Shown here piece after piece: positions 2,619 to 54,407 of a stretch of DNA of 64,000 bases. The notes beneath the pieces are model-generated. The model was not told where the DNA came from. It saw only the letters and a list, made by a program, of their open reading frames with translations, and did not search any database. Both the position numbers and the translations under genes were made by a program. Every line of letters begins with the position of its first letter. Within the stretch, counting starts at the first letter, position 1. The DNA comes from a virus (taxonomy: Duplodnaviria; Caudoviricetes): the IMG/VR virus record IMGVR_UViG_3300035208_006730. The stretch is one strand, 5' to 3'.

Positions 2619-5600
2619 CTATTTTAAAATTGGACCCGTATATCCTTGATTTCTATCATTCAAAAGATATCCACCAAAATCTCCCTTGATCCAATTCCAG
2701 TTCTCAGGAGAATATTCGTATGCAGCATTATCAAGAGCTTTAGAAAGACCAGAAGCTCCTTCAGAAATAAACTTGAGACCATCCCAAAGCATCCCACCTT
2801 GAGTGTACTTAGAGGTTAATCCGTGAATAAGAGGTTTATCTTTATAAATCAGTGGATCAATTCTAAACGGATGTGCGTACTGAGAAGATGCAACAATTTT
2901 TCTCATTAACCATTTTAATGGTCCTCCTAAAACGATGTCTAATGCTTTCAAGGGACCTGCAACTGCAGTCTTACCAACAGTACCAGTAGCATTAATTAAA
3001 CCCTCGCCCTCTTTAACAAGTGCTCTAGCTCGAGTAACTTGATCCTTTAGCCAGTCACCAGGCATATATTCAGCTACAACTCTTCCCATCAATTCGTCAG
3101 TTGAGATAGTAGCGTTCTGATTAATGTGGATTACTGCATTAGGAGTAATCTCTGAGATGAATCCATTAACCTCATTAAATTTATGGATCACAGATTCTAC
3201 TTCTATTGGTCCATACATGTTGGTGTGATCATCGGCTATAAAGACTATATCGAAAGGTTTTATGGCAGGATTACCGATAATAACTATTGATCCTTGATAG
3301 GATTTTTTCAAAAGCCTCCAAAGAAGTCCGATAGCGTACCTTTTCGCCTGAGACTTTCCGATACAATTAGGGTAGGTCATAAACAATTCTCTGGTATCTT
3401 CATCGGAAATGTCTTCATCGGCTTTCATCGTTAGAATTGCGGGTTCTCGAGAAACAAGTCTTCCAAACTCTAGATCTTTGGTTTGTTCATCACGTAGCCA
3501 TGTTGTATCTGAATACTGAACTGCAACGGCATTAAAGACGCCCTTGGTTCTTGAAGAAATATTGTTAGCTATAATGTCGTATTTGTCTGTGATTAGATAG
3601 TAGTTTCTAAATGGTTTAACGATATCCATCTCTTCAGCTAGCGTGTTTTTAAGAGTAGTAAAGAAGGCGACCTTATCGACCTTTTGGAATTCTGGATCTT
3701 GCAAAGATTTGGTTAATCCTTCTATTTCCGAATTAGACATTGTAGTATTGCGCGATAGAATTGATTTTAACTTCTCTTCTGTAAGATCATCTGTTGGATT
3801 GCCACTTTTAATATCGTCGACAAGTCCCGCCAAGTCTTTCGCAAAGTTAGCTTCATTGGGATTAGGGTCTCTTGAATAATAAAGTTGATTTGGCATTCCA
3901 AAATACATTGTCATTCTAGCGCCCCAGGAAGCGGTGTACGGAACTGCTTGAGCGATGAATCCTGGATGACGAATACACATCTCTTGGAATACGTCCCAAA
4001 TGGTAGTACGAAATAGTTTATAAGGATCAGATGACTTGAACATTGAAATACAAGTTGATCCACCTGGGGCGAAAATATTTAAATCCTCAGGTTTTTCTGT
4101 GAATTGGAATTTTTGGGTAAGAGTGTCATAAAAATCTCCCATACCCTTTTGACCTGGTTCCCAGCGTCCAAAGTGAACGAGTTCTGGCTCATTCATTAGT
4201 TCATGGAGCAAGGGTCCAGTATCTCCAGTCTTTGTAAAAAAACCACCATAATTAACTGAGTCCTCAATCCCCTTCATTCTTGTTATTAGTTCAGTACCAT
4301 AACTTTGAGCAACAATATTTAGTAGATCATCTGATTCTGAAAATTGCACCTCTGTAATAACGCCGTGAAAATTATTGTTTAAAAATAAAGGATTATTGGA
4401 ATATCCAAGACACAGTTTTACATGTATCCCTGGCTTAACAACAAGAGATATTAACGGATTTTCTTTCTTAGAGTCAACATCTCGAGCTTTCGTTTTTCCC
4501 TCGTTTTGAGCAATTGGATTATCGAATGGTTGGAGTTTACCTGTCTCAGTATTCATTACATTCTGAAACTTTCTATTAGATAGAATTCCAGAGATATTTG
4601 TCAGTTCAAGAACTATGATATCGGCTGCAACGTTCTGATTCATAACGTGCGTAATATCTTTAACTGAAGCGTAACTAAAGAAGTCATCAAAACCATATTC
4701 TCTACGCTCACCATAATCTGACTCGATGAAGTAGAGCTTGAACGTTGGCCATGCTTTCGCAAGACCTCTACAAAATCCTTTATTCATATTTCTGGTATGT
4801 TGACGGATTAAGCGAGGAACAAGTCCTGTTGTTTCTGGAGAATTGACTGAAGTTAGTTTGTCGCAGATTCGGACGTTACCCAGAATCTCTAATGGGGATT
4901 GATGCGCTCCATCCTTTAGGATCATAAAGTGAAGATGAACTCCAGTTGAAATTCCAGAACTTCCCATGATAGCAATTGGCTCTCCACCTCGAACAAACGG
5001 TTGGATACCCCTTGCAAGTGAAGCTTTCCAATTGTCGAGATAATACCCGTCATCTTTAAGGTGGGAGTAACTCGATGTCCATCCATTACCATGATCAATC
5101 TTAATATATCCAACGGGAATTTTTATTCCTTGATCTCGACGACGAAGAACTTCTGCAGCGGAATAAGTCTCTCCAATATTACAAGCTACAATTTTTCCTG
5201 GAGCAGCTGCTTCAATCACAGTCTCAAGTCCACTACTCCCAATATCGATACCGTCATGTTCCCAGTTTTCTTTCCTCGCTTTGTCTAACTGACGTTGAGC
5301 ATCAGCTTCGGAGATAATTCCTTGTTGTGTTTTTTGAGATAGCGCTGCAATCTTTTGTTCAATAAATGGATTTGGACGTGACCCATATGGAGACGTAATA
5401 TTGTGATTCTCGAAAGCATACACAGCAGGAACTGGCCAACACCATTGCTGTGGACCAGTTTCCATTGAACTTTCAGTTCCAAAGGTTTCTCCAGCTAAAT
5501 AGATTTGACCGTCTTCGAGAAGAGCTTTACCTCCTAGAATGTGTTTGATTCTTTTGCTTTCATCTTTGAGTCGATCTGGGAGTTTCTGTTTTCCGCCAGA

Positions 5601-41324: not shown

Positions 41325-41770
41325 TAGACATCGCTTTCGGTCGCGGAAACCTTAAATCGTACGGTCTTTAGCCGTTGAACTGGGATAGATGCTGGAATTT
41401 CGATTCGAATCCAAACTGGTAACCAAGTATTGGTGTCAGTAAGATCTGAAAGATCTATTTCCCCTGGGGAACCTGGGATAGCGTAGTTAATTGTTGACCA
41501 TTCGTCTGATGTTGGTTGTGTATCGCCCGCGAAAAGTTTGAAAGAAAATCCATCATCTCCACCAACAAAATCGATCTCCAAAGTGTCAAATTGCTCGATT
41601 GACATAGATATATCTTCGTAAACGTGCAAACTGTCATCGTTTCTTACGAAAATTTTTACTTCATGGATACCACCAATTCGGCCATCGAAGTTATGTAAAA
41701 ATGCGTTAGTGAATGTACCAGAACTATATGGGGTACTGTCGCCCTGATTTTCGTAGAGCTGAATTGACAT
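41324..41770 (-). CDS. Hypothetical beta-rich virion protein
   Basis: 148 aa; coupled to the terminase stop; PVWIRIEIP motif. Confidence 0.5.
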   Translation of the reverse strand: MSIQLYENQGDSTPYSSGTFTNAFLHNFDGRIGGIHEVKIFVRNDDSLHVYEDISMSIEQFDTLEIDFVGGDDGFSFKLFAGDTQPTSDEWSTINYAIPGSPGEIDLSDLTDTNTWLPVWIRIEIPASIPVQRLKTVRFKVSATESDV

Positions 41771-44700
41771 TAGATATTACTCCTCTGCGGTCGATAGGTC
41801 CTGGACCTAATGATAGCATTGCCAGATTCCTTTGTCACTCCAAAGTATTTTCGCATGTTAACTACGCGACTATTTTCTGCAACGTGAGCAGCTGGAATGA
41901 TGGTTTTGGGTCTAGTAAAAAGATCCGTTCTTTGTTCTGGCTTTTTGATTTCTTTAGATTTTTCTTCTGAAACAACAAATCCCATTTTCGCAAGAGGAAC
42001 GTCATCTGTACGAACCTCGCTGCCAGCAGAAAGATTGATTCCTTTAGTAAATCTAACATCTGTGACTGGAACTGGCTTGCCAAGGCCACTAAACTCAAGA
42101 GCAAAAGCTACAAGCCCCAGCATTACCGCGTCTAACTCATGATCTCCACTCTCACCTGGCTTATAGACCGCTTTACCAGAAGGAGCCACATGATCAATGA
42201 CATAGCCTTGCAATTGAGAACTAAGCTGTTCGTCTTCTTCTGGATAACGGAAAAGTCCATTCTCAATGTACCGAACAGCATTTTCGACCATAAAGTTCTT
42301 AGCTGGTTCTTTTTTCTTTTCTCGAGTGAAAAGATCTCTGATCTCAACTGTTGAGCCAGAGTCATAAAAGAATGTACATCGAAGGAATGCATCTGGATGA
42401 TTCGGCCCGCGTTGTTCATCTGCAAGGGCATCGTATCCCCATTTATGTAACATCTCTTCTTGTGTTGCTCCAAATCCTTTATCTGCATAAATCGCTTTTG
42501 GCTTCCAGATTCGATTAAGCCGAGCAATCTCTTCGCACGCTTTGTGCTGAGTATATCCGACCTGCTGTACGCAACAAAAGTCTACAAGATAAATGTACTT
42601 ATTAGATGGATTTTCTCCAAGAACTACAATATTTACACCATTCTTAATATCATTCCAGTCGCAACCAATAATATAACGCCATCCAGTAGTTGGGACAAAA
42701 TCTCCATATTTATAGTTACTTTTGGCGATAGAGATGTATTGATTTTGGAAAACCCCGCCCTCCATTTCCCCAAATTCCGAAAGAACTTCGTGTATATAGC
42801 CTATTCTGGTTAAACGTTTTTTATAGAACAAATCAAGTTTTTCATTCCACAGGGGATTTTCCGTAGATGGAAGATGGAACTCTTTAATTGTGTCGTCAAA
42901 ACACATCTTGTAAAAACTCTCTCGTTTGCCCGTAGGAGTAGAGCTGGCCCAAGTTTGGGCATCTGGAGAGTTTGTAATAATCGACATCGCAGCATCCATG
43001 TCGTCTTCATTCAGCATGTCTGATTCGTCAAAAACTAGAAGATTAGCGTGCTGACCACGGGCTGCTGCTGCACCATTATTAGATTTGCTTCCCGCAGTGA
43101 ATCCGATAACGCTCGACTTGTTTGCTAGTTCAAGTGTATATTGGGGAGCCTTCACTGAACGGACAATGGAGTTGCGAAGTTTTTCAGAGCTAAGGATTAA
43201 ATCATTTAAACGTTTAAATACAAGATCAATTTGCGATTGAAATGGAGCAATAAGAACTATCGCAAAACCTTCATCCTCTGGACAGTCCGGTCTCATGAAA
43301 AGAAGATAAAGCATTGCGATTACAAGAGCTTCCGTATTATGTGTAATAATATTGTTTGCAATGAAATTATGCGTATCTGGAACAGTTAAATCCCATGTCA
43401 TTTTATTACCAACATGGATAACAGATCTTACGCGAATAAAAGCTATGTCACCATCTTCATAAACTTCTGTTTTCGGAGAAGCCTTCATTTGAAGAGACAT
43501 TCTATAAACAGCTTCTACTGCTTGATCTTTACCTAATATCCCAATTTTATTTCGAAAGTTTTTTATAGATTCCTTTCTAGAGATACAGATTTGACGCGCA
43601 TATAGTTTGCCCTCTTTGCACTTTACTGTCTTGAATCTAACGTCAGCGTAAATGCAAAATCTAGCCAATAGGGCGATTATTTGGCTAGCTAGCCTTTCTG
43701 AAACTGTACAGTAACCAATTTGAATTTGACCCCTTTTAGAAATAGAAGCCCAACCATCACACCCAAATAAACATCGTAATAATTCAATCGTATTTTCATC
43801 ATCTAGGGTCATGAACTCATCGGGAATATACTTTTTATGCGAGTTAAGGCCATAAATACCTATTGTCTTTAACCATTCCTTAAGTGGATGTAATTTACCA
43901 ACACCTTCTCCTAAAATATGGTAATCGCAATTAGTCTTATCTGATTCATATTGGTATAGTGTACAGTTATAGTTTTTTAATGCAGTCTCAAAACGAGAGA
44001 GTATTTGTTCATTCGTATTAGAAAATCTGCAATTATTGGAGGTTAGATTTCCATCCGCAATCATACATCCAAGAATTGTCATTTGGTAATTTGGAACATG
44101 TTTCGTTAAGCTCAGGTTTAAGTTCTTTGGGACAGCTACATAGCAGTCATTAGTTAAATCTTGAGCTTCTAACCACTTATCTTCTAAAATTACATGTCTT
44201 AATCCAGTAGTTGCTTTACCCTGTTTTTGTCTGACCAAAAATGGATGATGCTCAGTAGCCTCTATTTCCCTACCATCCATTAAAGTAATACGCATTACTG
44301 GTTTAATTCCATTACAAGCACGAAGAGCAGGGTTAACTACAGTAAAATAATTCCTATCTAGAGATACTACTAAATCTCCATCCTGAACTTCTTCTATTGG
44401 ACGTTGACTACCATCTGCCATCTGAATCAACGTACCAGAGACTAAACATTTTCCAAGCTGTCTTCCTAGTCGGTATACCTTTTGTTTGGCTGAGCAATTA
44501 TGAACTACCAAACCATTAGCTATAAAATTATGTCGCGTATCTACTTCAATATCGTAAACAATTTCTTGGCCCGCATATTCTATATTGACGATTTTGGTGC
44601 GTGTCAGACAAGAAAGACCGCCATGCCGACGCCAATGCGTACGCATCGCCAAATTATCAATTGCTTTTCTACTCTCTAATTCCTTCCCATACACTAGACC

Positions 44701-46032
44701 ACAGAAATTAAAAAATTGTTCCTGATCGGCAATACGCTCTATTCTAAGAGAAACTCCCTTAGCATCAATATCTTTTTTATCTTTATAAATATGGCTCGCA
44801 TATATCCCAATTTTTTTTAATAAATACCTAAATAAAAGTAAAAAATTTCTATTACCATTTGATAAATTCAAATGCGTAATTCCAAAGCCGCCCTCGGCCC
44901 CTTCGTAGGTATAAATACAACCATCGCCAGACCAACAGCGATTAATAAAAGCGCCCAAGGCAATAGCGGAAAAATGAAACGCATATTGTAAAATACTGAT
45001 TTCTCGTGTTATCTTGTCATAACAACCAATCGATCTCAGAAAAACCAGTAAAGGTGAATCGCGATTAGAGAAAGCTACACTCCAAAACCTATGATGAGTA
45101 ACTCCATCTTTGCTGATACGCTCAGGATGAAATCTAATTTCACTGTCTTTAAGTCCAAAAACTTTATCCGCTAACATAACAAATTCATCGACATATTCTT
45201 TGCGGATATTACTAAATTCAACTACGTGTTTTTCCCCAATTTTACCAGAGTTGCAAACATATCCGTCAGTTACGATATAGCCTAAAAGTTTAGCTAAATC
45301 CTGATCATTATTGTCCCCAAAAATAGCGAACTGATTGAGCGTATAAACCTTATCGCCAATTGAAAGTCCATCTTCAAGCGTTTTATAAACTCGCTTAAAA
45401 GATTTACAATCGAACATCTCATTAAGAGCCCCATCTTTGTACCAACTCAGAATAGGATGATTTGCCGTTACTTTAAGTGTGTCGCCATTTTCTAATGTAA
45501 CCCTCCAAAGGTCTCTCACTCCATTTTGAAATTTCCGCAATACGGCATAACTTCGTTGTGTTTGTTTTCTCCCCTCGTTATAAGTTACAACTTTATCTCC
45601 CACCTCTACATCACGAATCTTCTTGATCGTACCATCGGCCATAAAAATATCTGTATCGCCATGCAAACATCTCAACAGTGTAGCTTGATAGGGTCGATGA
45701 TATCTTGAATGACCAAGAATACTTTCTCCTGGATGTCTTGCAATCCATTTTTGGTATTCTTTTGGATTTTTACGTTTCCAAACTTCACCGTCTGGATCTA
45801 GGCAATGCCAGTCCAAATAGTCTGCGGCCCAAATGACAGGGTCAAAGAAAGCTTCAATTTCTCTTTTAGTTAGTTCTGGATTATCTCTGATTAGTTCTGG
45901 CGTTGCATACTCTTTTGGAATACCGTCACATTCTATTTTAAATTGAAGTCTGCCGCTTGTGGCTCCAAATTTTTTCTTGTACGCCTTAACGCAAGATATA
46001 CATTCGTGAGAACATTCGTTGAGATTCAGCAT
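41770..46032 (-). CDS. terL: Terminase large subunit with two inteins (~658 aa spliced)
   Basis: Spliced sequence restores RPYQ..GRQLGK|TE (Walker A), ARGQHANLLVFDE (Walker B), SSTPTG, and nuclease motifs IIGCDWN, IYADKGFG, DHELDA. Confidence 0.93.
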   Translation of the reverse strand: MLNLNECSHECISCVKAYKKKFGATSGRLQFKIECDGIPKEYATPELIRDNPELTKREIEAFFDPVIWAADYLDWHCLDPDGEVWKRKNPKEYQKWIARHPGESILGHSRYHRPYQATLLRCLHGDTDIFMADGTIKKIRDVEVGDKVVTYNEGRKQTQRSYAVLRKFQNGVRDLWRVTLENGDTLKVTANHPILSWYKDGALNEMFDCKSFKRVYKTLEDGLSIGDKVYTLNQFAIFGDNNDQDLAKLLGYIVTDGYVCNSGKIGEKHVVEFSNIRKEYVDEFVMLADKVFGLKDSEIRFHPERISKDGVTHHRFWSVAFSNRDSPLLVFLRSIGCYDKITREISILQYAFHFSAIALGAFINRCWSGDGCIYTYEGAEGGFGITHLNLSNGNRNFLLLFRYLLKKIGIYASHIYKDKKDIDAKGVSLRIERIADQEQFFNFCGLVYGKELESRKAIDNLAMRTHWRRHGGLSCLTRTKIVNIEYAGQEIVYDIEVDTRHNFIANGLVVHNCSAKQKVYRLGRQLGKCLVSGTLIQMADGSQRPIEEVQDGDLVVSLDRNYFTVVNPALRACNGIKPVMRITLMDGREIEATEHHPFLVRQKQGKATTGLRHVILEDKWLEAQDLTNDCYVAVPKNLNLSLTKHVPNYQMTILGCMIADGNLTSNNCRFSNTNEQILSRFETALKNYNCTLYQYESDKTNCDYHILGEGVGKLHPLKEWLKTIGIYGLNSHKKYIPDEFMTLDDENTIELLRCLFGCDGWASISKRGQIQIGYCTVSERLASQIIALLARFCIYADVRFKTVKCKEGKLYARQICISRKESIKNFRNKIGILGKDQAVEAVYRMSLQMKASPKTEVYEDGDIAFIRVRSVIHVGNKMTWDLTVPDTHNFIANNIITHNTEALVIAMLYLLFMRPDCPEDEGFAIVLIAPFQSQIDLVFKRLNDLILSSEKLRNSIVRSVKAPQYTLELANKSSVIGFTAGSKSNNGAAAARGQHANLLVFDESDMLNEDDMDAAMSIITNSPDAQTWASSTPTGKRESFYKMCFDDTIKEFHLPSTENPLWNEKLDLFYKKRLTRIGYIHEVLSEFGEMEGGVFQNQYISIAKSNYKYGDFVPTTGWRYIIGCDWNDIKNGVNIVVLGENPSNKYIYLVDFCCVQQVGYTQHKACEEIARLNRIWKPKAIYADKGFGATQEEMLHKWGYDALADEQRGPNHPDAFLRCTFFYDSGSTVEIRDLFTREKKKEPAKNFMVENAVRYIENGLFRYPEEDEQLSSQLQGYVIDHVAPSGKAVYKPGESGDHELDAVMLGLVAFALEFSGLGKPVPVTDVRFTKGINLSAGSEVRTDDVPLAKMGFVVSEEKSKEIKKPEQRTDLFTRPKTIIPAAHVAENSRVVNMRKYFGVTKESGNAIIRSRTYRPQRSNI
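43336..44448 (-). mobile_element. Intein with LAGLIDADG endonuclease (371 aa) in the terminase Walker A
   Basis: GRQLGK|CLVSGTLI..ATEHHPF..TWDLTVPDTHNFIANNIITHN|TEA. Confidence 0.95.
44497..45669 (-). mobile_element. Intein with LAGLIDADG endonuclease (391 aa) in the terminase
   Basis: LLR|CLHGDTDI..VTANHPI..VYDIEVDTRHNFIANGLVVHN|CSA. Confidence 0.95.
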
Positions 46033-48715: not shown

Positions 48716-51700
48716 TCACCATTTCTTTGTACGATTATTCACTTCAGTTAAATAAGGAACTCCCTGTTGTGCAGTTTGAACGCTAGAGAAAGCAGAATGA
48801 GAAGAACCTCCACCCTGAGCAGCATTAAACATCTGAGCTTGAGCGGAGCGCTGATTTGAGGCCATAAAATCGACCCGCTGAGTCGTTTCAGTTTTTACCG
48901 GAAAATTCCCAACTGGTTGCGTTTGTTCAACTGGTTTCTGGGTCCGTTCTTCTACTTGTATTGAAGCCTGAGAAAGTCTAGCCTGATTCGCCTTAATCCT
49001 TTCCATTGTCTGTCTTCTCCACATTAAAAATTCCGTAACATCATCTCCCATCCCCTCAATTCCCAATGGCGAAAGAAGATAGTTTTGTGGACGAGACATA
49101 ATGGCTCGCGTCCCAGAATCCATTTCGGCAAGATATGCTGCCCTAAAGGCGTCATCATGTTCTAGTTCGCCTTTACCTGTCGTTACAATACGTCTAACAC
49201 GTTCAGCTCCCTCTTCCATTAAATCTGTTTGTTCTGTAATAGCCCTCAAATTAGATGATTCTTTTTTAGAAAAGGCCACACCAAAGTCAATAAGCTTAAA
49301 TTTAACGTCATTTCCTTCTCTTTTGAAAACTATATTTGCCCTATTAATATCTGCATGCATTATGTCGCCTTTGGACATTTTTTTAAATGCATCTGCAGCC
49401 CAATCAGAAAGTTTTACAGTTTCTTCTTCAGATAAAACACTTTCTTCTACTAATTTGGCATCTTTAAACCTTTTTTCAAGGATACTGCTTCCAGCATTTT
49501 CCATCAATAATGCATCTTTCTGAAAACCGTAAACTTCTGGAACCATTTCTCCATATTCTTCTCGAGCTGCCTTAGTTAACCTAGCCTCACGTCCAAGATT
49601 TAGTTCGTTGTTTTTAGCTAAAATACGAGCGTCAATATTAAGGCCTTCAAGTTCCCTGCCTCGAAGCATCATTGTTCCAGCACTAAATCCTTGAATTTTT
49701 GCGCCAGCTAAATGGGGTAATTCGGTCTTCAGAACTGCCTTACCTTTGCCAGGAACCCAAGCGTTATAAGCTACACCTTGAGCTCCAGATCCCAATTTAT
49801 TTAAAACATAGGCTTCCGTTTCGCCAACGCTAACTTTTAGTTTTTCTCCGAGTCCCTCCTTAATCAAAGATTGCATTTCGCTTTCTGCAGCCTCTGGAGC
49901 TGCAGAAAGAATCTTACTGATACGTTCTTCTGGTAAAATTCTGGCCGCTTTATCGGCTAGAGTAGAAATAAATCCTGAACCAAATGGGGTCATTAGATGT
50001 CGAATCTTCGCAGACAGACCTACTTCAGACATGCCCTCAATTATATTAAAAGAAAACTTATCTCCCCAAGCCTGTTTGTCTGATTGCTTCTTATCTTTCC
50101 TCCACATTGACTTTCGAAGTTTTCTTCCCATCATTCGAGCTTTAATAAACTCTTCTTCGGTCAACTGTCGATCTTGATCTCCTAGGGAATAAAGAAAGGA
50201 TTGGTAGGCGCCCAAATTTAAATTTTCTGACAGTTTATCAATACTTGCAAACGTATTGTAGGTTATTGGCTGACCCATTTGCTGTTTTGCTTCAGCAATG
50301 GCCTGATATCTTGCCAAACCCCACATCCCAATGCCCTGCTCTCGTGCAGCAAGTTCAGCTTGGGCGGTATGCTTTCTTGTAACTAATTCTTCTGAAGCCT
50401 CACCGAATGGCAAAGCCGATACAGCTCCTCTTCGAATTAGTTCTACGTTTAGGTTGGTCTTGTCAGATACGACAGCCCCGAGGTAACGACCGTAGGTCAT
50501 TTGCGAAGGATCAATAATTACTGAAGCAGCTGGATTCTCTGCAAGGAGTTTTCGAAGCTCTGCGGTGGCCTCTTGCCCTCCAGGTTGTTCCTGGTTGATA
50601 CGTAGTTGGGAAAGAAGAGAACCTTCAGAGTGGCCTGCGGTCTCGGGCGCATCTATACCCGCGAGGCGAATAGAGATTTGTCCATATCCAAATTTAGCTT
50701 TTAACCAGTTTGCTATTCCAGAACGTCGAAGAACTAGAGTATCAGCGTCTTCCACATCCATAATAAACTGGTCAAGTATAATTCTCTTTAATTGTTTGCC
50801 TTTTTCGTTGAGAGCTTCTATTTCTGAGGCATTTGCGGCAATTAGATCAGAATCGAGAAGTTGGCCCATCTTTGCTTGGGTCTCAGCTTCTTCTTTCTGC
50901 AATTGGGCCTGAAGATTTCCTCTGATTGTTGGATCGTCCCAAATGTCGCGCCGAAATTCTCTAATCCTTGGGTCTATCAGTTGACCCATCAAAGCATCTG
51001 GAATTGGTTGTTTCGCAAACGGGATATTAGTATCATCTCCCGCAACAGCCCCTCCAGGAAGAGCTGGAACCTTTGTAATGTCCTCTAAATCTCCAACATC
51101 ATCCCCAGAGAATAGGGACAGAGGCTTCAACCAGGAAAGAAGACCAAGTCCACCAATAATCCCTGCAGCAATTTTAAATTTACGATTTGGGCTAACCTGA
51201 GTAATAGAACGAAGAGGTGCTCCAACAATCTCTCCAGCATTTCTTTTGGAGAATGGGAGTTCTTCCTGAATAGCTTTTTCTATTTGTTCCCAAGAAGTCT
51301 CAGTTTTTGCTGCTCGAGTCCTGAACTCATCCCAATTAATTGTCTCATTTCTTTCAGTAGCAGCTTTAGCGGCACTAATTAATCGGTTTTGTAGGGCCAG
51401 ATCATGCCACTGCTTAACAGAAATCTCCCCCTTTGAAGCATAGATCTTCGCAAGAGTCGCAACGTCAGAAGAGACTTCGTGAGCTTCAGCAGAAGTAATC
51501 CCAAACAGTTTAGCTGCAATTTCCTGGGTCCAACCAGCGACTTTCTTTCTATCGATCAGATCAACGACTTCAGAAACGTTTTTCCCTTGGGCAAATAGAC
51601 CTGCGGCCTCTTTTCCAAGCGGATACATTTGCTTAATTAGATCTGGATCGTATTTGGCCGCAAGTTCTTCTGGAGAAAGGTTCTTAGTCTCTTGATAGAT

Positions 51701-52171
51701 TGTGCTCGAGAGTTGAACGACAAATTCTTGAGCAAGATCTCTAATTGTAATCTTGTCGAGAACCTGATTAAACCGAGAAGTTAATCCATACTTTTGAGCT
51801 CTAGCGAGAATCATTGGAATATCAAAACCATTTACTCCCGGAGCAAGAATTGATCTTTCTCCGATATTCCAACCTGCTAGAACTGGATTCTCTGTCTGAG
51901 AAAATGCTTCAAGATCGTTCAGTAATTCAATTAGAAGTTCTTTTTCCTCAAGAAGTTTTCCTCCAGAAGCTAGCCGAGTCTTTTCTGCAAGGGGAATAAT
52001 CCTCTCGCGGGCGAATTTTGAGATGAACGATCCTTCTGCAGGGGTTGAGTACATTACCCTGACGGGACCACCAACAGATTGACCAACAGAGAGAATTGGA
52101 GAATTTGCGGTCAATCCTCCAGTTTCAATATCAATGAAACGTACATTCCCAAATTGATCAAAAGAAATCAT
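48716..52171 (-). CDS. Multidomain protein: DEDDh exonuclease + hydrophobic helix + SNase thermonuclease + protein-kinase-like domain
   Basis: IDIETGG/GWNIG..FDIP/AHEVSSD; IAAGIIGGLGLLSWL; DADT/RLAGIDAPE/YGRYL/LNVELIRRG/GIGMWG; LGSGAQG/AVLK/HADINRAN/LIDFG. Confidence 0.85.
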   Translation of the reverse strand: MISFDQFGNVRFIDIETGGLTANSPILSVGQSVGGPVRVMYSTPAEGSFISKFARERIIPLAEKTRLASGGKLLEEKELLIELLNDLEAFSQTENPVLAGWNIGERSILAPGVNGFDIPMILARAQKYGLTSRFNQVLDKITIRDLAQEFVVQLSSTIYQETKNLSPEELAAKYDPDLIKQMYPLGKEAAGLFAQGKNVSEVVDLIDRKKVAGWTQEIAAKLFGITSAEAHEVSSDVATLAKIYASKGEISVKQWHDLALQNRLISAAKAATERNETINWDEFRTRAAKTETSWEQIEKAIQEELPFSKRNAGEIVGAPLRSITQVSPNRKFKIAAGIIGGLGLLSWLKPLSLFSGDDVGDLEDITKVPALPGGAVAGDDTNIPFAKQPIPDALMGQLIDPRIREFRRDIWDDPTIRGNLQAQLQKEEAETQAKMGQLLDSDLIAANASEIEALNEKGKQLKRIILDQFIMDVEDADTLVLRRSGIANWLKAKFGYGQISIRLAGIDAPETAGHSEGSLLSQLRINQEQPGGQEATAELRKLLAENPAASVIIDPSQMTYGRYLGAVVSDKTNLNVELIRRGAVSALPFGEASEELVTRKHTAQAELAAREQGIGMWGLARYQAIAEAKQQMGQPITYNTFASIDKLSENLNLGAYQSFLYSLGDQDRQLTEEEFIKARMMGRKLRKSMWRKDKKQSDKQAWGDKFSFNIIEGMSEVGLSAKIRHLMTPFGSGFISTLADKAARILPEERISKILSAAPEAAESEMQSLIKEGLGEKLKVSVGETEAYVLNKLGSGAQGVAYNAWVPGKGKAVLKTELPHLAGAKIQGFSAGTMMLRGRELEGLNIDARILAKNNELNLGREARLTKAAREEYGEMVPEVYGFQKDALLMENAGSSILEKRFKDAKLVEESVLSEEETVKLSDWAADAFKKMSKGDIMHADINRANIVFKREGNDVKFKLIDFGVAFSKKESSNLRAITEQTDLMEEGAERVRRIVTTGKGELEHDDAFRAAYLAEMDSGTRAIMSRPQNYLLSPLGIEGMGDDVTEFLMWRRQTMERIKANQARLSQASIQVEERTQKPVEQTQPVGNFPVKTETTQRVDFMASNQRSAQAQMFNAAQGGGSSHSAFSSVQTAQQGVPYLTEVNNRTKKW

Positions 52172-52200: not shown

Positions 52201-52947
52201 TTACTCTCCAGAATTAAGGAGATCATCTGGGGTCAAAACATCCTTTGGAAGTTCTACCTGTTTAATCTGTTTTTCGATGATTTTAGCTCTTTTTTTCGAA
52301 TCGGTTATGGAGGTATCGCCCTTGTCCTTCTGTTTCAATGCAGCTTGCTTTTTATAGATTTCTTGGGGATCTCCAACCATTAATTTGATCAGTCTCTCTC
52401 TGCGAGCAGAGAGTTTCAACTTGGCTTCTAGGTAAGGAGTAATTTCGTAGACAGTAACGATCTGTCCTTTGAGATTTTGGGTAGTTTCGAGAATTAGATC
52501 TACGTTCTCTTTCATAGCCAAAGATTTATTAGTTCTCATTAAGAGAATCTCTATTTCAGCCAACTCGTTACAGTAGGCTACTTCTGCAGCATTAATTGGA
52601 TTTACATCAAATCTTTCCATGTAACGAAGAAAGAATTCTGAATAGAAACTAATTTCTGCTGGACAGGGTTGACCGATTGGGACTTTAGTAATTGGGAATG
52701 GACAGGTCTTTCTGTAGAAGCATTCTTCTTGACCAAGACATTCCATTGCCAGGAATGCTCCTGGGCCTGTAACGTACTTGGTCATCAATGCTCTAATTCG
52801 AAGCATTTCTTCATTTGTGTATTGGATTGGGTTTTTATCAGGATTGAATGATAGCGCCTCGAGAAATGCTTTTTTGGCGAATTGTTTCTTTCCATCAGCG
52901 TCTTGTTCTGCGGAATAGATTGCTAGTTCTTTCTCTATTAATGACAT
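52201..52947 (-). CDS. Putative terminase small subunit (Cys-rich N-terminal half)
   Basis: 248 aa; first gene of the morphogenesis region; C..C..CP..CP.E followed by helical ELAEIEILLMR..; mainly positional. Confidence 0.45.
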   Translation of the reverse strand: MSLIEKELAIYSAEQDADGKKQFAKKAFLEALSFNPDKNPIQYTNEEMLRIRALMTKYVTGPGAFLAMECLGQEECFYRKTCPFPITKVPIGQPCPAEISFYSEFFLRYMERFDVNPINAAEVAYCNELAEIEILLMRTNKSLAMKENVDLILETTQNLKGQIVTVYEITPYLEAKLKLSARRERLIKLMVGDPQEIYKKQAALKQKDKGDTSITDSKKRAKIIEKQIKQVELPKDVLTPDDLLNSGE

Positions 52948-53090
52948 CTTGTTACCTGCTACTTTCTAAGTGATTGATCACTATGAAATTCCTGCTTCAA
53001 CGAAGATAGTTTCGTATCTTTTGATACCAGAGCTTTCTTCTCGACAGGCTTGACTTCCCGAGTAGCCCTCGGTAGTTGTTTTAAGTTTAG
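52935..53090 (-). ncRNA. Putative TnpB omegaRNA (right-end RNA) with flanking guide
   Basis: tnpB 3' end reads ccgagggctactcgggaagtcaagcctgt..tcgttgaagcaggaa, like TnpB right-end RNAs; boundaries approximate. Confidence 0.55.
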
Positions 53091-54192
53091 GGCCGCATTA
53101 TGATCACGATCTAAAACTAAACCACATTTACAATTAAAAGTCCGGTCTGATAACTGTAGGTCTTTGATGTCGCCACAAGAAGAACAGGTTTTGCTACTTG
53201 GAAACCAACGATCAGCAACTTGCAAATCAGTTTTATAAATTACCGACTTATAAGTTGTTTGTCGTCTAAACTCTCCAAAAGCGGCATCACTTAGAGACCT
53301 TGCTAGGTAACGATTCTGTACCATGCTCTTCACATTTAGATCTTCAATAATTATCGTTTGGTTTTCACGACAAAGTCTTGTAGTCAATTTATGAAGAGAA
53401 TCCTGCCGGATATCTTTAATCTTGCAATGCAAACGAGCTAATCTATCAGCAGCTTTTTTGCGATTAGAAGATCCTTTTAGTTTTCTTGAATGTCTTCTAG
53501 AAAGCCTTTGTAAGCGCTTTAGATATTTACCTAAAGACTTGGGACCTTCTATTTTTTCATCAGTAGATAGAGTCGCTAGTGTAGTAATTCCAAGATCAAC
53601 GCCAATCTTTTCGTTGCCAATACGGTCTTTATGGTAGTCACCAACATTAACTTGAACGGCAAGCATCCAACGGTCAGCTACTCGGCTAACGGTAGCGCTC
53701 ATTACTTTGCCAGCGAACCTTAAGGTTTCTCGCATGCTAACCCAGCCAAGAACTGGAATCCTAACTTTCTTTTCGTCAAAAGAGATTTTATCGTTAGCAA
53801 TGTAGAAAGAGTCTCTTTGTCCCTTTTTATGAAATTTAGGATACCCGGTTTTCTTTTTAAAGAAAGAACTAAACGCTTTTTGTAAGTTAGCGAAGGGTTG
53901 TGCGGTACAGTCTCTATGGACATCGCAGGTCCATGGAAACTCTTGTTTACGAATAGAGTTGAAGATCTTTTTAAGAGTTGAACTCTTGGGCTTCTCGCCT
54001 AACTCGTAACGTTGTTTCCATTGGCCAAGAGCCCAATTGTAAGAGAATCTAGCAGTACCACAAGCTTTCACAAAATACTCTATCTGAGTTTTAGTTGGCA
54101 TAAGTCTTATTTTATGAGAAAGAATCATTTATTTCCGCCTGTTCATGTATATCACTATAGCACAACCACTTGTCAAAGGTCTAGAAGTACCT
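52953..54192 (-). mobile_element. Non-autonomous tnpB-only element (IS607/IS605-like)
   Basis: tnpB without tnpA; AGGTA (minus strand) at both junctions, 52953-52957 and 54188-54192; removing the element restores AGGAGG-N7-ATG for the downstream gene. Confidence 0.75.
52959..54128 (-). CDS. tnpB: RNA-guided nuclease TnpB
   Basis: 389 aa; HTH_OrfB N-terminus (HKIRLMPT..GTARFSYN), RuvC GVDLG, IEDL, DRDHNAA and CSSC/CKC zinc finger, all intact. Confidence 0.95.
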   Translation of the reverse strand: MILSHKIRLMPTKTQIEYFVKACGTARFSYNWALGQWKQRYELGEKPKSSTLKKIFNSIRKQEFPWTCDVHRDCTAQPFANLQKAFSSFFKKKTGYPKFHKKGQRDSFYIANDKISFDEKKVRIPVLGWVSMRETLRFAGKVMSATVSRVADRWMLAVQVNVGDYHKDRIGNEKIGVDLGITTLATLSTDEKIEGPKSLGKYLKRLQRLSRRHSRKLKGSSNRKKAADRLARLHCKIKDIRQDSLHKLTTRLCRENQTIIIEDLNVKSMVQNRYLARSLSDAAFGEFRRQTTYKSVIYKTDLQVADRWFPSSKTCSSCGDIKDLQLSDRTFNCKCGLVLDRDHNAALNLKQLPRATREVKPVEKKALVSKDTKLSSLKQEFHSDQSLRK

Positions 54193-54244
54193 CCTAGAGT
54201 AGTTTACCAAGGAAAAGTATTTTTAACTAATCTAAAAATAGTTC

Positions 54245-54274
54245 TTGACACGACAATTTTGTCACTGCTATATT
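54245..54274 (+). promoter_or_regulatory. Sigma70-type promoter TTGACA-N18-TATATT with extended -10
   Basis: Perfect -35, TG before the -10, at the strand switch; spacer contains the palindrome GACAATTTTGTC. Confidence 0.6.
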
Positions 54275-54344: not shown

Positions 54345-54369
54345 TTTCTCGGGCTGATGGCCCGAGAAA
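54345..54369. terminator. 10-bp stem-loop in the divergent intergenic region
   Basis: tttctcgggc-tgatg-gcccgagaaa. Confidence 0.4.
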
Positions 54370-54407
54370 TAAAACAATGTATTCCGAAATAACTACCTCA
54401 GGAGTAA

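Follow-up and report, generated by a model that had tools for sequence, protein, structure and literature searches.

The subject of this analysis is a 1235-bp IS607-type element with tnpB and no tnpA, found in a 64,000-nucleotide stretch (the window) of the tailed phage record IMGVR_UViG_3300035208_006730 from IMG/VR (Duplodnaviria; Caudoviricetes). It lies directly 3' of the Shine-Dalgarno (SD) sequence AGGAG of a gene for a 248-aa protein and separates this motif from the start codon. The reading that we favor, with a probability of nearly four in five, is that this is a transposase-less derivative of the IS607 family – made up of a left end of about 60 nt with a promoter-like site of its own, of tnpB, and of a guide-RNA scaffold overlapping the 3' part of this gene – which landed 3' of the SD and would spread in the manner of a homing element. 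It accounts for the unexpected gene in front of the phage's structural operon, and it predicts a 25-bp target consisting of AGGAG and 20 further nt. The parts of the element and its flanks are as follows.

52956..54190, minus strand: the tnpA-less IS607-type element in full (1235 bp, from the left end through tnpB to the end of the guide-RNA scaffold), with boundaries taken from relatives
54191..54195, minus strand: left flank AGGAG, original SD of the 248-aa gene and probable target-adjacent motif (TAM), from the sequence, the NGGAG of relatives and the published TAM
54129..54190, minus strand: left end, 62 nt, with a TCTAGAC..TTGACAAG block, a promoter-like site and a five-codon mini-ORF; homologous to the tnpA-bearing locus L115 and others
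52959..54128, minus strand: tnpB, 389 aa, predicted RNA-guided RuvC nuclease with intact catalytic triad, from Pfam, PHROG and PDB matches
52956..53088, minus strand: guide-RNA (omegaRNA/reRNA) scaffold, wholly in the 3' end of tnpB, last five bases AGCAG, from covariance model R1
52936..52955, minus strand: putative 20-nt guide template and target GTAACAAGATGTCATTAATA, made up of the spacer plus codons 1–4 of the 248-aa gene, from the family rule
52201..52947, minus strand: 248-aa gene with the split ribosome-binding site (RBS), first gene of the leftward operon, from the list of open reading frames (ORFs)

A tnpA-less IS607 element between a Shine-Dalgarno sequence and its start codon

The tnpB ORF ends with TAG at 52961-52959. 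Its product matches the Pfam families HTH_OrfB_IS605, OrfB_IS605 and Cas12f1-like TNB (PF01385, PF07282 and PF12323 all score above cut-offs), PHROG 506 (E 1e-111), and the PDB structures of ISDra2 TnpB (8BF8/8EXA, E 3.5e-51) and ISFba1 TnpB (8IAZ, E 7.6e-52). The RuvC triad (D178, E262, D342) aligns with the catalytic residues of both structures and, like the zinc-finger cysteines (CxxC...CxC: C315, C318, C333, C335), is invariant in 28 relatives. The nearest TnpBs are 67% identical (5.8 billion proteins searched), and the best matches in sequenced phages (about 40% identity) are IS607 TnpBs of Microcystis and Helicobacter phages. In the sister loci L097, L098, L106, L115 and L215 tnpA, which encodes the IS607 serine recombinase, is directly upstream of tnpB, and a stub of it is present in L010. 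The protein thus belongs to the IS607-associated clade of TnpBs, with a reRNA of the RAGATH-18 type, and a preliminary description that had called the element a solo IS607-type TnpB element was correct. No tnpA is present between the left end and tnpB (62 nt), and no serine recombinase or resolvase (PF00239) was found anywhere in the phage record. This copy is therefore a derivative that lacks tnpA and not an autonomous IS607. Two textbook features of that family, tnpA and a terminal GG, are absent from it, and it is best called a derivative of an AG-ended IS607 sub-lineage.

The element boundaries were set by relatives, independently of the repeat noted in the preliminary description. On the minus strand the left junction reads ...actctAGGAG/GTACTTCTAG... 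(the slash marks the junction), with AGGAG at 54195-54191 and the first base of the element at 54190; it continues into the element as ...actctAGGAG/GTACTTCTAGACCTTTGACAAG..., with 62 nt to the tnpB ATG at 54128. The right junction reads ...GAAAGTAGCAG/GTAACAAG-ATG; the last base of the element is 52956, and the 248-aa gene opens with its ATG at 52947. At this end the conservation among relatives stops exactly past ...AGCAG. At the other end a homologous block (TCTAG/TTAG ... TTGACAAG) begins 5–7 nt past NGGAG in every alignable relative. The block TCTAGACCTTTGACAAG is found again in the left ends of L115 and L215, both of them complete IS607 copies that have tnpA, and also in L007 and L010, which are without tnpA (L010 keeps the stub of the tnpA N-terminus); L098 has it in a looser form. 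The search that found the block did not require GGAG, and NGGAG preceded the block in five of five loci, or six of six when L098 was added (AGGAG three times, then GGGAG, CGGAG and TGGAG). Because NGGAG precedes the block in each alignable locus, we place the start of the element right after (N)GGAG.

What is the dinucleotide shared by the two junctions? Both have AGGTA in the window, as the preliminary description reported, which placed the junction at GG. For the window's lineage GG was rejected as the crossover dinucleotide, since relatives diverge right after ...CAG. Only AG is a family feature: element junctions across the family share this dinucleotide and nothing past it, with no target-site duplication, and the extra GTA of the window is, by this sequence comparison, a 3-nt coincidence. 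A search of the element for terminal inverted or direct repeats gave nothing beyond chance. The element is single-copy in the phage record and 100% identical in the independent contigs L003 and L004.

Within the left end a promoter-like site (54183..54154) has the form TAGACC-18-TATAGT with a TG, i.e. it is extended -10-like. In a promoter scan the number of such sites in the region was not above that in shuffled sequences; the left-end site is plausible. The mini-ORF (ATG AAC AGG CGG AAA TAA) adjoins the tnpB ATG, at the usual place of tnpA, as previously described; a tnpA remnant was considered for it, and the peptide (MNRRK) is too short for testing.

Joining the flanks gives ...CTCTAGGAG-GTAACAAG-ATG, that is, AGGAG, 8 nt, and the ATG of the 248-aa gene. 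The core string of the rebuilt site is AGGAG+GTAACAAGATG and the full joint is ...CTCTAGGAG-GTAACAAGATG. Seven codons before the ATG this joint has a TAA in the same frame, so that the ATG is the native start. AGGAG is found 5–9 nt before the start of 12 of the 44 long ORFs in the window, and at this spacing is therefore the normal RBS of the phage. The homologous gene in a relative (L005, protein 46% identical) is likewise the first after a divergent intergenic region, a layout that we take as ancestral; no tnpB precedes it, and 6 nt separate its ATG from an AGGAG. The lineage of the window element probably recognises (N)GGAG as its target-adjacent motif, and as this is the SD core, the insertion came to lie immediately 3' of the SD and 8 nt from the ATG.

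After insertion the 248-aa gene is preceded by AGCAGGT where AGGAGGT stood, with one mismatch and the same spacing; the pair of sequences at its RBS region is AGGAGGTAACAAG-ATG and ...GTAGCAGGTAACAAG-ATG. The preliminary description had rightly placed the insertion between SD and ATG, had joined the minus-strand flanks to the same string as we obtain, and had given 11 nt as the distance from the tnpB stop to the ATG. Its view that the element leaves the gene only CAGG has to be given up, as the element's end together with the flank makes up the longer AGCAGGT.

Guide RNA, right-end classes and the sites chosen by relatives

The scaffold ends 3 nt past the tnpB stop codon, which is itself part of GTAGCAG. 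For our covariance model R1 the final 145 nt of 16 relatives were aligned; its match in the window has 123.5 bits and ends exactly at 52956. The RNA conserved in this alignment has 19 predicted pairs, with compensatory changes in 16 of them, and the single-sequence fold of the window scaffold has a z of -2.1. A partial match to the Rfam family RAGATH-18 (52989..53048, 27.2 bits, E 0.02) lies within the 3' end of tnpB, and this core is embedded in a scaffold common to tnpA-bearing relatives. RAGATH-18 is the core of the IS607 TnpB guide RNA (Ren et al. 2024, PMC11061315).

As a rule of this family, the sequence that directly follows the right end serves as the guide (PMC11061315; bioRxiv 10.1101/2023.11.20.567912). 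By the rules established for IS605 and IS607 TnpBs the guide of the window element would be the 16–20 nt past its right end, GTAACAAGATGTCATTAATA (52955-52936), a string that has no second occurrence in the window when up to 2 mismatches are allowed. The preliminary description also sought the guide past the right end; by our boundary it starts one base earlier than was proposed there. The TAM can be predicted in the same way. Among 23 measured IS607 TnpBs of the RAGATH-18 type the TAM was 5'-AGGAG in 18/22 strains and GAGGG in 4/22; for ISFba1, which uses a 20-nt guide, any single change in AGGAG abolishes cleavage (PMC11061315). The probable TAM of the window element is accordingly AGGAG (54195-54191). 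These published measurements, with the NGGAG flanks described above, agree with the SD-like TAM foreseen in the preliminary description.

The relatives comprised four of the nearest TnpB loci with their context and 240 more, drawn from collections of viruses, metagenomes and genomes. They fall into two right-end classes, ...AGAAAG(T)AGCAG (the window's class) and ...GAACGG, and in both of them sequence similarity stops at the right end. The sub-lineage that ends in ...AGCAG inserts after ...GGAG and shares the dinucleotide AG, whereas the ...AACGG sister class keeps GG.

A proposal of the preliminary description, that sister elements be checked for insertion in RBSs, gave a positive answer. 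We counted ATGs that lie 5–9 nt past the right end and begin an ORF of 50 codons or more, using for the AGCAG class only elements with enough downstream sequence. Such an ATG was present in 13/22 AGCAG-class elements and in 6/66 of the ACGG class (Fisher p = 5e-6), against 5.2% at random positions and 8.8% at all AGCAG pentamers in the same loci. The compactness of phage genomes was considered as the cause and rejected, because in viral contigs alone the counts were 11/16 for AGCAG and 0/6 for ACGG. One IS607 sub-lineage thus lands between SD and start codon far above chance, and its right end imitates the motif that it displaces. The rebuilt joints of L007, L010 and L115 each have an SD, 6–9 nt, and an ATG. 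L098 sits inside an ORF, at TGGAG; the insertion rule is therefore 'after GGAG', and RBSs are where GGAG is most available and most tolerated. About 60% of the AGCAG-class relatives are without tnpA yet intact, an indication that no TnpA is needed for TnpB and its guide RNA to be kept. Our literature search found no paper linking the AGGAG or IS607 TAM to SD or RBS insertion.

A stronger version, which we advance only tentatively and would sooner doubt than assert, is that the AGCAG-ended lineage is specialised for RBSs. A TAM equal to the SD core would offer a site at every well-translated gene, the guide would lie over a start codon that is hard to mutate, and the AGCAG end would both blind TnpB to the occupied site and substitute for the SD at the old spacing, aided by the nearby tnpB stop. 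If so, insertion would be nearly silent, and transposase-less copies could survive and pass from one co-infecting phage to another by RNA-guided homing – in the present case at the head of a structural operon of more than 50 kb.

Two further observations concern the sister elements. AGCAG-ended (AGGAG-TAM) elements are the majority among the close relatives from viral contigs, as against 2 of about 50 copies in bacterial genomes, where ...GAACGG dominates; this phage enrichment of the SD-targeting class is a hint only, the sampling being biased towards the query (loci L171-L250 vs L007-L090). In the sister locus L017, which is without tnpA, 10 nt (AGTTAAAACA) at the presumed left junction (after ...atacGG, ~1950-1990) occur again at the right junction (...gatagc AGTTAAAACA TGG, 3128-3147). 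This repeat far exceeds the 2 nt expected for serine-recombinase insertion, and the L017 element may have been captured in a different way, for instance through repair or homing that used microhomology.

Proposed homing, its alternatives and the search for empty alleles

The mechanism that we propose is as follows. Transcription from the operon promoter or from the left end would read through tnpB; as the two genes are 11 nt apart, all of the late operon would have to be transcribed in this way. The last 135–190 nt or so of the RNA would fold into the scaffold, and the next 20 nt or so (GTAACAAG-AUG-UCAUUAAUA) would be the guide. The TnpB-RNA complex would then cut a co-resident phage genome that has the uninterrupted AGGAG+GTAACAAGATG..., and recombinational repair from the occupied genome would copy the element in, resulting in homing or in exclusion of the empty allele. 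Since the phage has no TnpA, such cleavage of the empty alleles of co-infecting relatives, followed by repair, would be the only route of spread. The occupied site should be immune because the element's end, AGCAG, differs from the TAM at -3, and in ISFba1 single changes abolish cleavage. AGCAG together with the nearby tnpB stop would leave the 248-aa gene a weakened SD plus translational coupling; an SD with one mismatch at unchanged spacing, and this coupling, are likely why an insertion at the operon head is tolerated.

Several points weigh against this reading. Twelve contigs have an identical 248-aa protein and all those shown carry tnpB, with no empty allele among them; the 22-nt joint, sought as an exact string in viral contigs, had 0 matches. 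L005 is the one relative that lacks the element, and at 46% protein identity it is too distant for a base-by-base test of the joint. There is no close copy of the element elsewhere (best TnpB 67%) and so no evidence of recent movement, and with copies that are 100% identical, selection on tnpB within the phage is unmeasurable. The RAGATH-18 match is under the Rfam gathering score. The TAM is carried over from distantly related TnpBs (ISFba1 8IAZ, E 7.6e-52), and two lysines by which ISFba1 contacts the TAM, K80 and K83, align with D73 and A76 of the window TnpB; N121 and N61 of ISFba1 are conserved in it (N112 and N57).

We also looked for empty sites of the sisters. Exact scans for GGAG plus the right flank of L010, L007, L026 and L066 gave 0 matches, and look-ups of the downstream proteins of L010, L066 and L026 returned only occupied or truncated contexts. 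The Nodularia phages kac65v151 and kac68v161, which differ in TnpB copy number, were considered as an empty-site pair and rejected: the difference is a replacement of 2.87 kb by 126 nt and not a clean insertion, and their scaffolds do not match the covariance model. In these two genomes (99% identity) a 2.87-kb segment at L266:4861-7734 corresponds to 126 unrelated nt at L265:4459-4586; the segment has an IS607-like tnpA/tnpB pair (the tnpB with an internal TGA) and a 275-aa ORF.

Three other explanations were considered. The element could be a stranded passenger, brought in by one IS607 transposition with TnpA from a host copy, deprived of tnpA, fixed, and now idle, its TnpB intact only by recency or a lag of drift. 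We regard this as unlikely, though it fits the identical element in every contig shown of the 12 with the identical neighbor gene, the failure to find an empty allele in these or in the viral contigs scanned, the lack of tnpA in the phage record and the lack of a close copy elsewhere. What it does not lead one to expect is a full-length ORF with every catalytic and zinc-binding residue, a scaffold scoring as those of tnpA-bearing relatives do, or the many AGCAG-class relatives that have lost tnpA and are intact. Much less probable is that tnpB is an ordinary resident gene and the AGGAG/AGGTA pattern a coincidence. That no empty site was observed directly speaks for it; even so, we give it hardly any credence, given a left-end block homologous to that of complete IS607 copies at a fixed offset past NGGAG, a right end conserved to the base and then diverging, the absence of tnpB at the same place in L005, and flanks that join to a standard RBS with an in-frame upstream stop.

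A third possibility is that the element has been co-opted as a regulator, the TnpB-RNA complex or the scaffold tuning the late operon, for example by binding or processing the polycistronic mRNA at the scaffold and thus altering translation or mRNA stability. The guide template covers the spacer and start codon, and the 248-aa gene can be transcribed only through tnpB, the 11-nt gap leaving no room for a promoter. Moreover, TnpB is reported to process its own mRNA into guide RNA (PMC10278001), and TnpB-derived repressors (TldR) exist in phages. The RuvC triad of the window TnpB is intact, however, unlike that of the nuclease-dead TldRs, and the same geometry recurs at many unrelated genes, for which target choice is explanation enough. 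We therefore consider regulation very improbable, and retain the homing-type derivative as our reading of the element.

The phage setting and known systems

The window is part of a 158.9-kb viral contig that is estimated to be 83% complete. According to the ORF list, every long ORF from 52947 down to the start of the window is on the minus strand, and the genes upstream of 54457 are oriented the opposite way. The leftward operon continues to the following genes.

41770-46032, minus strand: large terminase, intein-sized, 1420 aa
35338-38814, minus strand: portal, 1158 aa
30875-32134, minus strand: major head protein (major capsid protein)

The 248-aa gene is the first gene of this leftward late/packaging-structural operon, a wording we prefer to the 'first morphogenesis gene' of the preliminary description. 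As the first gene of a structural operon it is probably, not demonstrably, essential. Its product has no Pfam or PHROG family match and only weak leads to small terminase or YonG; the only homologs found are at 46–47% identity (P0003, 46%). No closer phage relatives were found by a related-locus search with this protein or by megablast of the region against 50,697 phage records.

Several other features of this part of the genome were recorded. The large terminase and the portal are far over the usual length, and their middle parts match PHROGs annotated as primase, helicase, recombinase or thymidylate synthase, a pattern typical of intein insertions. Right after the 248-aa gene (48716-52171, minus strand) is a gene for a 1151-aa protein with a staphylococcal-nuclease domain (PF00565, E 1e-13) and a weak protein-kinase/ABC1/RIO-like region; in L005, a distant relative, a staphylococcal-nuclease protein of 1356 aa occupies the equivalent position. 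The divergent intergenic region contains a near-consensus sigma-70 promoter (54245-54274, plus strand; TTGACA-18 nt-TATATT with an upstream TG, 11/12 matches) facing the rightward genes, and a GC-rich hairpin CTCGGGC..GCCCGAG at about 54350-54372.

For annotation the consequence is that the gene likely to be labeled 'transposase' is a predicted guide-RNA nuclease, and that the real RBS of the next gene is 1.2 kb upstream. The case also bears on how transposase-less TnpB genes persist in phages and on how a gene behind such an insertion survives. The AGGAG TAM is already published; what the window adds is a clean, well-delimited phage example and no new principle.

Among known systems, ISDra2 TnpB of the IS200/IS605 group (8EXA/8BF8/8H1J) is likewise an RNA-guided RuvC nuclease (E 3.5e-51) with a scaffold overlapping the 3' end of tnpB, but ISDra2 has a Y1 HUH TnpA, subterminal hairpins, a TTGAT TAM and a scaffold of another family. 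The free-standing homing endonuclease genes seg and mob of T-even phages cut the allele that lacks them in mixed infection and are copied by repair (PMC13565253). Like them, the window element is a nuclease gene wedged between conserved phage genes and presumably co-transcribed with its neighbors; in contrast to them it has transposon ends, its target would be recognised by a 20-nt RNA guide and a 5-nt protein-read motif and not by protein alone, and its homing is a proposal.

ISFba1-type IS607 elements (Ren et al., Cell Res 2024, PMC11061315; 8IAZ) are similar in TnpB fold and RuvC triad, in the RAGATH-18 core of the scaffold, in a guide taken just past the right end, and in an AGGAG TAM that equals the flank here; the TAM classes of that study, AGGAG and GAGGG, mirror the right-end classes AGCAG and AACGG. 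The differences are that the proteins are only distantly similar (E 7.6e-52), that the window element is without tnpA, that the ISFba1 reRNA is described as separate from the coding sequence whereas the window tnpB ORF spans the whole scaffold, and that two TAM-contacting lysines are not conserved; PMC11061315 does not mention ribosome-binding sites.

The IS607 IStron of Clostridium botulinum (Zedaveinyte et al.) has a serine-recombinase family transposase and scarless excision; its TnpB TAM is the target motif of the transposase, and TnpB cleaves the donor joint so that the element is retained. It differs in its TAM TGGG with a GG core (AGGAG with AG here), in its group I intron and tnpA, and in residing in a bacterial chromosome. 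Its scaffold ends in UCGG where the TAM is TGGG, and the mismatch at -3 discriminates self from non-self (10.1101/2023.11.20.567912); AGCAG against AGGAG in the window element repeats this -3 logic.

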